A DNA stretch of 34,489 nucleotides from a virus (lineage: Duplodnaviria; Heunggongvirae; Uroviricota; Caudoviricetes), in IMG/VR virus record IMGVR_UViG_2541047695_000003, one strand, 5' to 3'. The position numbers and the translations under genes were made by a program. The notes under the pieces were generated by a model. The model did not search any database, was not told where the DNA came from, and was given only the letters and a program-made list of their open reading frames with translations. Positions 14,108-19,208 of the stretch are shown piece by piece. Position 1 is the stretch's first letter; the number at the start of each line of letters is the position of its first letter.

Positions 14108-14180
14108 TTGCTTCTCTAAATAAAACATGACGCGGGAGGTTAACGCCTCCCTTATTCCTGTTTTATAGTGAGGTGATTCG

Positions 14181-17100
14181 ATGCAGTCGATCCAATTTAA
14201 ACGAACAAATGTTTCTGGCAAAAAACCAACGCCGGAACAATTACAGGTCGGTGAGGTAGCAATCAACCTTAAAGACCATGTTATTTTTACCAAAGACCGA
14301 GATCATGAAGTAGTTCAAATCTCTGTTTCTCCTGAAACTCACGCGGCACTAGAATCTAAAGTTGATGCTAATAAAAAAGAACTGGATAGCACAATTGCAG
14401 TAAATGACCGCAATATTCACGCTAAAGTAGATGAAATTAAACAAACTACTGATGCAACCATCGCAGCAAATCACGCAGAAATTAACAATAAAGTTGATGT
14501 AATTAAACGCGAAACCGACGCGACAATCGAGGCCAATAAAAATAAAGCTGCTTCCGATCTTGCTGGTGTTAAAGCTGAATTGTCGGATACCATCAACGCT
14601 AATAAAAATGCGGCTGCTGTAGCAACTCAGGAACTGGACACCCGCATCAATAAAAAAGTTGATGATATTAAATCCCGTACCGATGCAACCATCGCAAGCA
14701 ATGACAAAGCAATCAATGACAAAGTTGATTTGATTAAGGCAGAAACTGACCGCACTATCGCAGCAAATCACGCCTATGCGGAAAATCAGTTAACTGACAC
14801 CTACAATAACCTTACTGGTGTGATTGCAGCCAATAAGCAAGAGGCAGCGGATAACGTCGCAGCATTAACCCGTGATGTTGAAGCCAAAAATACAGCAATT
14901 CATAGCAAAGTTGACAATAACAAGTCTTACACTGATTCTGAATTGGCACGTTTAGAAAGCCGTATTGATGCAGCCGATGGATCTGCTGATGGCAAGTACA
15001 TCAAAAAACACGTAAACACTTATACTGATGGTTATTTGCTGTCTAAGACCGCAAACTATTTTGATGATCCAAATGCGCGTAATCTTGATTACTTTGGTGC
15101 ATTCCGCATGAATGACCTGGCGGGTCATATTGCAATGATCTTGCATGTTCCGCATCCATCTGGTGTTAATCATGCTCGTGGCTTCGAGTTCACTTATGGG
15201 TCTAATCCACATGCTACTGTAAGAACATACGGCTATGATGAATTGGGACATTTGGCATATTCTCACCGCATGTATCATGAAGGTGATAAACCTACTCCGG
15301 CTGAAATTGGCGCATATTCGAAAGCAGAAATTGACCGACTGTTCCAGAAGACGCTTAATTTTGGTATCGAGGGTGGTTGGTTTAAACTAGGCACTTTGAC
15401 AATGCCACAACAACACGGTCGCACGGCTAAGATCCGTTTGGTTGGTGGTAACGGTTATAACGTAGGACATAATGGACAAGCCAATATTATCGAATTGGTG
15501 ATTCGATGCGGCAACAATAGCCCGAAAGGTGTTGTATTCAATGCGTATTATACTATTTGGCATCATGAACAACATTTTTGCGCTATTCCAACCGATGGCG
15601 ACAATTACGATCTTTACGCTTACTACGGTGCACATACAGGATTTGTTTTAGCAGAATATCAAGTTTCTTCCGGTGGTGTTTCTTTAAACCTGTTGGATAC
15701 TCCTGAATATCTGGGTGGTGAAAAACCTGTTGCAGATGAAATTTTTGATGCTCTTAACATTTCATCGTTCAATAACTTTAGCAACCGTGGGACGTTAAAT
15801 TTTGCTGGCAATCATCAAGGCCAATATGATATTGAGCATTTAAACGAACAACCGACAAATGCTAAAAAGATGTTGCGTCGCTTCCGTAGTTGTGCACCAG
15901 CTACAATCTGGCATGAGACAGTTGATGATAACGCATATCGTCTTGCTACTGGATACGAAGATACAAATCAGGAATTATTGCTGTCAGCAACATCCGGGTT
16001 ACATGTCAAGAAATTAACATTGGATGGCGGTGTTACTGGAAATTCTGGTATTGATATTCGTCGAGGACCAAACGAATCAAGCCATTTTAATTTCATGGAT
16101 TATCGCACTGGACAAGATGTTCGTAATGGCTGGTTTGGCTTCGGTGATGGTCAGACCAAAGATTTTATTTGGTGGAACGATAACGGTCAAAACTCTATAA
16201 ACCTGATTGAAGATGGTGAATTGCATATTACTGGCGGTAAAGGCCAGAAAATTGTAATGAATAGCGAAGTTGCATTATCTGAAAATGCTCGTTTGGCTGT
16301 CAAAGGTGGTAACTATGGTTTAATCCTTCGTAATGATGGTTCTAGCTTCCATATTCTTACTACCGATTTAAAAGATTCCTTTGGGACGTGGAACACTCGT
16401 AGACCATTTAGTTATGATTTCGCCGAAGGTGGATTAGATCTAGGTGGCACAGCTACCGCACGCTGTTTACATCTGGGAATTGATGGTAGCACCCGCATCG
16501 AAGATAATATGGTGTTTAGATCAGGGTCTCGTCAGTCAATGGACTATATTGAATTAATCCATTGGGGTAACAGTAATACCGCTCGTAACAACGTTTTGAG
16601 TATGAAAGACTCGAAAGGATTCCTTGCTGAATTTGAACGCGTGGGGGGTACTAACGGCGTTAAAACCAGATTCTTTGGCGAAACATTCACTGACGGTACA
16701 TTATACCTAAATCAGATGAATAATAGCTCTGAACGATTCTCTATCAATAACTGGGGAAATTCAGAAGTTGGTCGCGCGGCAGTGATGGAAGTCGGTGATT
16801 CCAAAGGTTATCACTTCTATACTGAACGTAGGACAGATAACAGTTTGATGTTTGATGTTGCTGGCGCTTTTACTGTGCATGGACCTTCCGGGATTACTAT
16901 CAAAAACTCTGCTGGTGCTCGCCACGTCTGGTTTAGAGATGATAGCGATACGGAAAAGGCTGTTATCTGGGCTACAGATGAGGGTATTTTACATATTCGC
17001 AATAACCACGGTGGACAATTTACACATCACTTCCAGGGCGCGATGATTAAACTGGAAGGGCGTGTTCCTTATGCCGCAGATCAAGGACTTATCCGTGGTG

Positions 17101-17705
17101 AGGTTTCTGGTGGTGCATATGTTGCATGGAGAGACCGACCTGCTGGTTTGTTGGTTGACTGTCAACAAAGCGTTGATAGTGCTCATGCTATTTGGAAAGC
17201 GGTTGATTGGGGGCGTAACTACATCGCTGCTATGGACGTTCATTGTCCCGGTGATAGTAATAATACTGCGGCAGCGGTTCTTCATGTTCAGGGTGCTGAT
17301 TATCAATTCCATGCAAGTGGAGAATTTCATGCCACTGGTAACGGAAACTTTAACGATGTTTATATTCGTTCCGATCGTCGTCTGAAAATTAATGTTGAAG
17401 ATTACGAAGAAAATGCGGTGGATAAGGTAAATAAACTCAAAGTTAAAACCTACGATAAAGTTAAATCTCTTAATGACCGAGAAGTTATAGGTCATGAGAT
17501 TGGTATTATCGCACAGGATTTACAAGAGGTATTACCGGAAGCTGTTAAAACCGCAAAAATTGGTGGTTTTGATAACCCAGAAGAAATTTTAACAATTTCA
17601 AACTCCGCAGTGAACGCGCTTTTAATTAAAGCGGTCCAAGAAATGAGCGAAGAAAATAAACTTCTTCGTGAACGTCTTGCTGCAATTGAAGCTAAATTAG
17701 GGTAA
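14181..17705 (+). CDS. Tail fibre with N-terminal anchor, coiled-coil repeats and a C-terminal self-cleaving chaperone domain
   Basis: 1174 aa; MQSIQFKRTNVSGKKPTPEQLQVGEVAINL fibre N-terminus; about 6 repeats of KVDxIKxxTDATIAxN; C-terminal SDRRLK motif. Confidence 0.9.
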   Translation: MQSIQFKRTNVSGKKPTPEQLQVGEVAINLKDHVIFTKDRDHEVVQISVSPETHAALESKVDANKKELDSTIAVNDRNIHAKVDEIKQTTDATIAANHAEINNKVDVIKRETDATIEANKNKAASDLAGVKAELSDTINANKNAAAVATQELDTRINKKVDDIKSRTDATIASNDKAINDKVDLIKAETDRTIAANHAYAENQLTDTYNNLTGVIAANKQEAADNVAALTRDVEAKNTAIHSKVDNNKSYTDSELARLESRIDAADGSADGKYIKKHVNTYTDGYLLSKTANYFDDPNARNLDYFGAFRMNDLAGHIAMILHVPHPSGVNHARGFEFTYGSNPHATVRTYGYDELGHLAYSHRMYHEGDKPTPAEIGAYSKAEIDRLFQKTLNFGIEGGWFKLGTLTMPQQHGRTAKIRLVGGNGYNVGHNGQANIIELVIRCGNNSPKGVVFNAYYTIWHHEQHFCAIPTDGDNYDLYAYYGAHTGFVLAEYQVSSGGVSLNLLDTPEYLGGEKPVADEIFDALNISSFNNFSNRGTLNFAGNHQGQYDIEHLNEQPTNAKKMLRRFRSCAPATIWHETVDDNAYRLATGYEDTNQELLLSATSGLHVKKLTLDGGVTGNSGIDIRRGPNESSHFNFMDYRTGQDVRNGWFGFGDGQTKDFIWWNDNGQNSINLIEDGELHITGGKGQKIVMNSEVALSENARLAVKGGNYGLILRNDGSSFHILTTDLKDSFGTWNTRRPFSYDFAEGGLDLGGTATARCLHLGIDGSTRIEDNMVFRSGSRQSMDYIELIHWGNSNTARNNVLSMKDSKGFLAEFERVGGTNGVKTRFFGETFTDGTLYLNQMNNSSERFSINNWGNSEVGRAAVMEVGDSKGYHFYTERRTDNSLMFDVAGAFTVHGPSGITIKNSAGARHVWFRDDSDTEKAVIWATDEGILHIRNNHGGQFTHHFQGAMIKLEGRVPYAADQGLIRGEVSGGAYVAWRDRPAGLLVDCQQSVDSAHAIWKAVDWGRNYIAAMDVHCPGDSNNTAAAVLHVQGADYQFHASGEFHATGNGNFNDVYIRSDRRLKINVEDYEENAVDKVNKLKVKTYDKVKSLNDREVIGHEIGIIAQDLQEVLPEAVKTAKIGGFDNPEEILTISNSAVNALLIKAVQEMSEENKLLRERLAAIEAKLG
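17370..17702 (+). other. Peptidase S74-type intramolecular chaperone auto-processing domain of the fibre
   Basis: SDRRLKINV...IGIIAQDLQEVLPEAV...LLRERLAAIEAKLG matches the endosialidase / T5 L-shaped-fibre C-terminal chaperone pattern. Confidence 0.75.
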
Positions 17706-17743
17706 TTGGAAAGCGGGGAGAAATCTCCGCTAAGGATTCTTAT

Positions 17744-18040
17744 ATGGGATATTGGGTAAGTAGTGAAATTAATACTAAAATCGATGCTTTAAAATGGCAT
17801 GTATTTGATATTCCTAACGGCTATGGTACTGCTCGTGCTGGTGTCGCTGTAATGCGTCATAATGCTGGTGGTGGGTGGTCTGATGCACATATTAACGTAG
17901 ATGGTTTGACCGTTGCTCGTCGTCGTGGTGGGACCAATTGGGGATCTACTATAAATTCGTTTGTTCCTGCTGGCTGCACCGTCTCCTTTGGTTTAGGGGG
18001 TGAAGGTGGTGTTGAATATTTTAAATTCATGGAGTTTTAA
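17744..18040 (+). CDS. Small Gly-rich protein, FDIPNG paralog 1 of 3
   Basis: 98 aa; conserved xW, FDIPNG(W/Y), GL, WG, V(S/T)F, YFKF blocks shared with the next two genes. Confidence 0.85.
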   Translation: MGYWVSSEINTKIDALKWHVFDIPNGYGTARAGVAVMRHNAGGGWSDAHINVDGLTVARRRGGTNWGSTINSFVPAGCTVSFGLGGEGGVEYFKFMEF

Positions 18041-18042
18041 TT

Positions 18043-18348
18043 ATGGCTGGATGGATAAATCAAAGAATGTCAAACGCTATTAGTATTTGGGCTAATGGTG
18101 GATATTTTGATATCCCCAACGGCTGGGTTACTGATTCATGCGGAATTGTTTTTGCTCATATGGAAGCCATTAACGGTGCTGGTGATCTTGATTCTGAATT
18201 GGCTGTAAATGGATTGATTGAATCAGGTCATCATGCTGGTGATGCTGGGAGTTGGGGCGCTAGTTCTTTAGTTGGCGCTGGTGCTACCGTTAGCTTTACA
18301 TTGGGTAAAGGTAGTTTGCATTATTTTAAATTCAGGAGAATGCACTAA
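18043..18348 (+). CDS. Small Gly-rich protein, FDIPNG paralog 2 of 3
   Basis: 101 aa; starts 2 nt after the paralog 1 stop. Confidence 0.85.
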   Translation: MAGWINQRMSNAISIWANGGYFDIPNGWVTDSCGIVFAHMEAINGAGDLDSELAVNGLIESGHHAGDAGSWGASSLVGAGATVSFTLGKGSLHYFKFRRMH

Positions 18349-18650
18349 TGGCATTTTGGGTAGATGGCGCTTTGGGGAATAGGGCGGGTAAAGCAAATCA
18401 AGGATGGTTTGATATTCCTAACGGTTGGACAGCCGACGCTTTCGGGACTATTTCATTCTGTGCTCATTCTTCCGGTGGTGGCGGTGGTGACTCTGAATTG
18501 CTTATTCATGGTTTGTGTGTTTCTGGAAGCCATAAGGGTCATGATTGGGGACAGATTCATTCTTGTATTGCACCGCAAGGGGCGGTAATTACCGTTAGCA
18601 CAAATAGGGGGATCGCTCATCTTCGTTATAGACGTTTGAGCAACCGCTAA
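18348..18650 (+). CDS. Small Gly-rich protein, FDIPNG paralog 3 of 3
   Basis: 100 aa; TAATG overlap with paralog 2. Confidence 0.85.
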   Translation: MAFWVDGALGNRAGKANQGWFDIPNGWTADAFGTISFCAHSSGGGGGDSELLIHGLCVSGSHKGHDWGQIHSCIAPQGAVITVSTNRGIAHLRYRRLSNR

Positions 18651-18704
18651 ATAAATAGAATTACGGGTATGTGCCCTATTGTTTAAAATAGAAGGAAAAG
18701 AATA

Positions 18705-19183: not shown

Positions 19184-19208
19184 AGCCATCCTTCGGGGTG
19201 GCTTTTTT
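19184..19208 (+). terminator. Rho-independent terminator or attenuator after the tube gene
   Basis: AGCCATCC-TTCG-GGGTGGCT followed by T6. Confidence 0.8.

Follow-up and report, generated by a model that had tools for sequence, protein, structure and literature searches.

The stretch of DNA analysed here (34,489 nucleotides; hereafter the window) is an E. coli prophage. Its tail genes encode tube proteins of the lambda-like kind, two chaperones that form a pair, a tape measure protein of 809 aa and a J-like tip protein, a gene content that suggests a tail of the non-contractile type. Directly behind a long tail-fibre gene lie three small genes, which we call p1, p2 and p3 and jointly refer to as the trio (Table 1). 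The fibre region is matched by 55 of the 5426 complete E. coli genomes and the trio by 24 of them. Fibre gene and trio form a cassette that sits between two terminator-like hairpins, located at positions 14134-14151 (after the 277-aa gene) and 19184-19203 (after the 156-aa gene). Given that two tail-tube paralogs bracket this cassette, the fibre module looks as if it had been inserted in the middle of the tail-tube region, which is unusual for a side fibre. Several E. coli prophage copies of the fibre region (e.g. in 14EC017, L3Cip3, KSC64, OW848980 and OkiPb01713) are interrupted, the interrupting elements being IS421, IS3 family members, ISVsa5, IS903B and a GIY-YIG nuclease gene.

Table 1. 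Features of the fibre cassette and its flanks, with positions in the window.
Feature	Position	Strand	Remarks
Tail-tube-like paralog, 277 aa	13274..14107	+	phrog_158 at 2e-10; upstream flank of the cassette
Tail-fibre gene, homologue of the T-even gp37 long-tail-fibre distal subunit	14181..17705	+	1174 aa
Distal shaft and tip of the mature fibre (T2-type tip)	16660..17369	+	presumed docking platform for a cap
S74 intramolecular chaperone, aa 1064-1174	17370..17705	+	Pfam PF13884
GC-rich hairpin, 8-bp stem (GCGGGGAG-AAAT-CTCCGC)	17712..17731	+	between the fibre stop codon and the p1 ribosome-binding site
Paralog 1 (p1)	17744..18040	+	98 aa; orthologous group ending ..FKFMEF
Paralog 2 (p2)	18043..18348	+	101 aa; orthologous group ending ..F[KR]F[KR]RM[HWQ]
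Paralog 3 (p3)	18348..18650	+	100 aa; orthologous group ending ..[RK][YF][RK]R[LM]xx
Tail tube protein, 156 aa	18705..19175	+	phrog_158 at 3e-20, weak Pfam Phage_TTP_12; downstream flank of the cassette

The fibre protein matches phrog_1699 (2e-136) as well as the Pfam families Gp34_trimer and Peptidase_S74, and over positions 16660-17660 its gene is 85-94% identical in nucleotide sequence to T-even gp37 genes. An earlier interpretation made from the letters of the window (the sequence-only reading) had placed the trio downstream of a fibre with a built-in S74 chaperone, and the searches agree: PF13884 covers residues 1064-1123 (E=5e-15), an SDRRLK motif with its Ser-Lys pair is found at residue 1064, and the region aligns to the S74 part of S16 gp37 (PDB 6F45_A). 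Self-cleavage before Ser1064, that is, between ..DVYIR and SDRRLK.., is predicted to remove the chaperone from the fibre. At the other end of the protein, residues ~75-250 (window positions ~14400-14950) contain repeated units of ~22 aa (..ATIAANHAEINNKVDVIKRETD..) with a weak Apolipoprotein Pfam hit, and these repeats suggest a coiled-coil stalk in the N-terminal third of the fibre.

The hairpin between fibre gene and p1 lies in a stretch (17700-17745, 46 nt) that folds with a dG of -14.4 kcal/mol (z = -3.0). Its stem is conserved and its loop variable across the E. coli, Krischvirus and Salmonella loci, and the equivalent hairpin of phage G2248 has been annotated as a terminator. Given that the hairpin in the window is not followed by a T-run, its effect may be attenuation or stabilisation of the transcript and not termination, and it may thus serve as an attenuator or RNA element. 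The stretch after p3 folds no better than shuffled sequence, and we claim no terminator there. A search of the Krischvirus loci for T4-type late promoters (TATAAATA) close to the trio found none.

The proposal that the three genes are tandem, translationally coupled paralogs has stood up well. Pairwise BLASTP comparisons of the three proteins give E-values of 1.8e-12, 6e-9 and 9e-15, Smith-Waterman z-scores against shuffled sequences are 15-19, and 19 columns of the alignment are invariant, including W4, FDIPNG, G-L, WG and later glycine positions; p1, p2 and p3 are true paralogs, with a similarity far above chance. Both junctions were located: the p1 stop codon (TAA, 18038-18040) is separated by 2 nt from the p2 ATG at 18043, and the stop of p2 and the start of p3 overlap in TAATG at 18346-18350. 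Each gene has a Shine-Dalgarno motif within the preceding sequence (AAGGA at 17733-17737 for p1, GGAG at 18031-18034 for p2 and AGGAG at 18334-18338 for p3). The proteins contain 16-17% glycine, and in the family alignment the loop segments around residues 38-50 are most variable, with the N-terminus, FDIPNGW and the C-terminus being conserved. Because dN/dS values against the Krischvirus and Salmonella orthologs range from 0.04 to 0.36 for all three, the genes are functional, protein-coding and under purifying selection.

No known family had been recognised for these proteins from the sequence alone, and our searches likewise gave no assignment: p1-p3 have no sequence match in Pfam, PHROG or PDB, and p1, as the only one of the three, has weak partial matches to PHROGs labelled 'tail protein' (E 0.008-0.05). 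An NHL/'Pizza' repeat motif (PNG..D..G) that emerged from the PDB profile search scored 4-7 bits per domain and was judged to be a chance strand motif. When 5.8 billion proteins were searched with word seeds, 35 clusters were recovered; every one stems from E. coli, Shigella or Salmonella and is labelled 'hypothetical'. Profile searching with HMMER, carried out exhaustively over 1.84 billion representatives, returned 19 hits, 15 of which are proteins of ~97-129 aa. The remaining four (2552, 3591, 1118 and 2715 aa) were not counted as relatives: two are ankyrin- or NHL-repeat artefacts in which numerous weak stretches add up, a third contains mainly DUF4347, and the last lacks any Pfam hit and was matched over one stretch of 28 residues. 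Among 50,697 deposited phage records, the family occurs in four phage genomes only (five records), and a motif-seeded scan of genome contigs (one genome per species) gave no match to it. Literature searches on the trio, on Krischvirus tip variants and on the proteomics of UPWr_E1 or KFS-EC yielded no description of p1-p3. The trio family is thus very small, with ~15 true representatives among 1.84 billion proteins, and undescribed.

The arrangement of the trio is constant. We compared intact loci from E. coli prophages, IMG/VR contigs, three virulent Krischvirus phages (G37-3, G2248 and UPWr_E1), three Salmonella prophages and three metagenome contigs. Every intact locus examined contains exactly three genes, one from each orthologous group and in the order 1-2-3, and every intact trio directly follows a fibre gene ending in an S74 domain. 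Orthologs from E. coli and Salmonella are 40-64% identical, compared with about 20-40% for the paralogs; the gene was therefore triplicated before these lineages arose, and all three copies have been kept. Two distant trios are carried by the metagenome contigs (L029-L031), and some distant members have the N-terminal tryptophan replaced by Y, L, M, N or Q. The most conserved member is p3, remnants of which persist in the loci of prophage TO6 and phage KFS-EC. In the Salmonella prophages (L019-L021), the p2 orthologs have N-terminal extensions of 9-30 residues ending in ..RIPxxGW, which place the helix with the tryptophan internally and resemble the GVPGW start of gp38. In one of the metagenome contigs (L029, 1375-4083), the trio is directly followed by a second fibre-like gene of 902 aa with a tail-collar-like C-terminal region.

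The trio also appears to move between phages. A region of ~3.4 kb (15267-18666), comprising the distal fibre and the trio, is common to the window and the virulent Krischvirus G37-3 (L001), where the trio is flanked by gene 37 and the holin gene t. The two copies share 87.5% nucleotide identity, and as one belongs to a temperate prophage and the other to a virulent T4-like myovirus, this level of identity points to cassette exchange across tail types.

The most informative context, which the sequence-only reading did not contain, comes from a comparison of the fibre with those of T-even phages. The adhesin gp38 is reportedly found in T2-, T6- and S16-type T-even phages (work said to be that of Trojet 2011 and Dunne 2018, with a structure in PDB 6F45). 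In most T-even-type phages, gp37 sheds a C-terminal chaperone domain, whereupon the trimeric tip acquires a receptor-binding cap, a gp38 monomer (PMC9569957; PMC6851490). In the 62 aa that precede the cleavage motif, the window fibre has the same amino-acid sequence as gp37 of the T2-type phage JE01, and in the C-terminal alignment with JE01 and RB3 it shows scattered substitutions only, until ~20 aa before the stop codon. In both JE01 and RB3, gp38 follows gp37 immediately. The recombination junction falls within the ~20 codons at the 3' end of the fibre gene, in the tail of the chaperone domain, and the trio occupies the gp38 slot behind a gp38-type fibre tip.

In the genomes compared, gp38 and an intact trio never occur together. 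The window carries the intact trio, and tblastn and phmmer searches with gp38 found no gp38 in it. G37-3 likewise has an intact trio and no gp38 in its whole 167,832-bp genome (tblastn and phmmer with T2-type and Krischvirus-type gp38 queries). In Krischvirus, a displaced site of gp38 has been described (bioRxiv 10.64898/2026.04.02.716166), and in the trio-bearing phages G2248 and UPWr_E1 the 777-nt gp38 gene is absent from the usual Krischvirus site, as determined by a search around the expected sites. Loci with gp38 show the converse. KFS-EC encodes gp38 at the displaced Krischvirus site (Whisky49 gp38 is 96% identical to it), and the trio of this phage has decayed: p1 runs into the middle of p3 at a shared GG(E/G)GGDSELL and a frameshift follows (L003, 5410-5839), which looks like a deletion between paralogs by recombination. 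In prophage TO6, a gp38-like 'receptor-recognizing protein' fills the slot and the trio is reduced to a 61-aa remnant of p3. This remnant is contained in a 70-aa ORF directly after the gp38-like gene (L005, 8595-8807), in which the last 61 residues are those of the p3 C-terminus and the first nine (MVYNI[VI]IGA) those of a small ORF usually found behind the trio in Krischvirus; the 70-aa ORF appears to be a scar of cassette replacement.

Trios are found with T2-type, S16-type (E=7e-42 to 6F45_A) and 'type II' tips, all three of which also occur with gp38 in other genomes. The notion that 'type II' tips go without a trio proved wrong, given that two loci (L011 and L014) combine a type II tip with an intact trio. 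The prophages of FDAARGOS_946 (L006) and DEC5A have a 'type II' fibre tip and neither trio nor gp38 in the 12-kb locus; either the tip itself binds the receptor in these cases or the prophages are defective.

As the junction maps to the last ~20 fibre codons, physical linkage alone could explain why the trio is transferred with the fibre 3' end, and p1-p3 might then be cargo without any relation to the fibre, for example a set for superinfection exclusion, receptor masking or anti-defence. We consider this very improbable. The sequences of p1-p3 contain no signal peptide and no transmembrane segment, the association with S74 fibres holds in unrelated backgrounds and at deep divergence with different flanks, and the complementarity with gp38 would be left without an explanation.

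A function at the fibre tip would also agree with the predicted folds, which the sequence-only reading had put forward as a check on the monomers. The AlphaFold2 model of p1 shows a helix (residues 3-14) and a 7-strand beta-sandwich (pLDDT 82), and that of p2 a helix (residues 2-13) and a beta-sandwich (pLDDT 86). Both models agree on a lower-confidence N-terminal helix, starting at the near-invariant Trp4, and a confidently predicted, compact beta-sandwich of 6-8 strands. The closest folds to p2 are C1q/TNF jelly-rolls and phage fibre knobs, at moderate similarity. The models support a knob-like jelly-roll fold for p1 and p2; they do not support membership of the C1q family. The globular head of C1q (chains A, B and C) and TNF trimers differ from the trio in several respects: there is no sequence similarity and no Pfam C1q/TNF hit at E<=1, the trio domain is smaller (~85 aa, with fewer strands, versus ~130 aa in C1q), and a short helix, not a collagen stalk, stands in front of it. 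The similarity in fold class extends to C-terminal knobs of phage fibres and needles (tail-fibre hits in BFVD, viral C1q-domain proteins, the Pan3 needle and the CDHS-1 RBP), and a knob formed by the trio would, like these, sit at the far end of a trimeric fibre. However, the known knobs are a covalent part of a homotrimeric chain, whereas the trio knob would consist of three different free-standing proteins attached non-covalently once the chaperone has been removed.

The trio shares several features with the gp38 adhesin. It directly follows a gene 37 whose fibre ends in a self-cleaving S74 chaperone, its proteins are rich in glycine and have a helix that starts with tryptophan, and conserved parts for attachment or the core alternate with variable loops. 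In S16 gp38, conserved tryptophans sit at the apices of three helices, and the gp37 trimer receives them in equivalent pockets spaced 120 degrees apart (PMC6851490). The gp38 motifs around these residues (PWVGSS, FWISSF and DWLIGE) bear some likeness to the N-termini of the trio proteins (GYWVSSE, AGWINQR and AFWVDGA), a resemblance between motifs that are too short for significance. Homology to gp38 was rejected by hhalign of the family against the gp38 alignment (probability 0.4%, E=0.15), and the architectures are clearly distinct: gp38 is a single monomer of ~260 aa, as opposed to three separate proteins of ~100 aa, and the trio models have a jelly-roll in place of the beta-helix, polyglycine-II sandwich and GRM/HVS pattern of gp38. 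While gp38 carries a three-helix domain with three apex tryptophans on one chain, each trio protein has one helix and one leading tryptophan. Finally, gp38 is a monomer on a trimer, whereas the trio would restore three-fold (pseudo)symmetry.

Assembly proteins are often encoded next to fibre genes. In T4, the gene at the position equivalent to the trio encodes a chaperone (PMC6851490), and T4 gp38, lambda Tfa and Mu gpU all share with the trio the location directly downstream of the fibre gene. The trio could thus comprise non-structural factors for folding or processing of the fibre tip that are absent from the virion, comparable to T4 gp38, gp57A and lambda Tfa, and some prophage copies indeed have the fibre without an accessory gene. 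We nevertheless regard such a role as improbable. In contrast to the fibres served by T4 gp38, Tfa or gpU, the trio-associated fibre has its own intramolecular chaperone, and the near-identical tips of JE01 and RB3 fold without a trio. There are three genes rather than one, with no match to any Pfam or PHROG family (including Caudo_TAP) and no resemblance to Tfa or to the T4 gp38 family, and the predicted knob-like jelly-roll occurs at fibre ends and is not a known chaperone fold. If the trio were merely a chaperone, G37-3 would be left with a T2-type fibre and no adhesin.

We favour the view that the trio forms a 1:1:1 heterotrimeric adhesin cap that docks onto the fibre as gp38 does and replaces it, a proposal in which we place about as much confidence as doubt. 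In this model, the S74 chaperone would cleave itself off the trimeric gp37-like fibre, and p1, p2 and p3, one copy of each, would join their small C1q/TNF-like jelly-roll domains to form a heterotrimeric knob. Their N-terminal helices, with a leading tryptophan in most members, would plug three symmetry-equivalent hydrophobic pockets of the fibre tip, so that three helices in three chains would reproduce the attachment domain of gp38. The variable loops of the knob would then bind the host receptor, and the trio would functionally replace gp38. On this reading, p1-p3 would be present in the virion in 1:1:1 stoichiometry, dock through their tryptophans and bind a receptor. Several observations speak against the model: the leading tryptophan is missing from some distant members, the profile comparison with gp38 was negative and the motif likeness is short, and some prophage copies have the fibre with neither trio nor gp38 close by. 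The translational coupling of the three genes, as read from the sequence, fits equimolar synthesis.

C1q/TNF-like domains usually form homotrimers, and p1, p2 and p3 each come with a separate N-terminal helix and separate variable loops. It is therefore conceivable that the three proteins act as alternative adhesins, each forming a homotrimeric knob of its own, which would provide the virion with mixed tips and a broader host range; the position of the trio and its mutual exclusivity with gp38 fit this scenario equally well. We consider it unlikely, since independent adhesins should be gained and lost independently and vary in number, yet exactly three genes in the order 1-2-3 were found even at an ortholog identity of 40-64% and in the distant metagenome contigs, and the close coupling of their translation points to equimolar subunits of a single complex. 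The fixed number, the fixed order, the retention of all three groups and the coupling are the reasons for which we prefer a single 1:1:1 complex to independent homotrimers.

Among the functions offered by the sequence-only reading, that of a cap or tip adhesin has consequently gained ground, the support being indirect and coming from the gp38 slot, the exclusivity with gp38, the fixed set of three genes in fixed order and the knob-like fold. The other two suggestions, alternative receptor-binding accessories and fibre-specific assembly factors, have been weakened, the former by the constancy of the trio and the latter by the S74 chaperone in the fibre and by the lack of any other adhesin in G37-3.

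The heterotrimeric cap, if confirmed, could have consequences for our understanding of host recognition in T-even-like phages and their temperate relatives. In its widest form, the proposal is that p1-p3 constitute the first hetero-oligomeric phage adhesin, an asymmetric knob of three C1q/TNF-like subunits that is docked non-covalently on chaperone-processed gp37-type fibres and, moving as a cassette between siphovirus-type temperate prophages and T4-like virulent myoviruses, is interchangeable with gp38; the chances of this full statement being correct appear to us somewhat below even. The locus itself documents that a fibre-tip cassette of ~3.4 kb has passed between phages that differ in lifestyle (temperate or virulent) and in tail type. 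Host range in T-even-like phages is at present deduced from gp37 or gp38; recent work on receptor prediction depends on these proteins and reports errors for genomes without gp38 (bioRxiv 10.64898/2026.04.02.716166). If our proposal is true, a third and unannotated solution for the fibre tip would explain host recognition by G37-3, G2248 and UPWr_E1, the last of which has been used in a poultry phage cocktail. The use of three subunits would represent a natural solution to the symmetry mismatch between the trimeric fibre and monomeric gp38, and three distinct sets of loops in one knob could provide a composite or multi-receptor binding surface. The trio would also offer a compact and swappable three-gene cassette for host-range engineering. 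Taken at its word, the model would make the trio a previously undescribed kind of phage host-recognition device, a three-subunit alternative to gp38.
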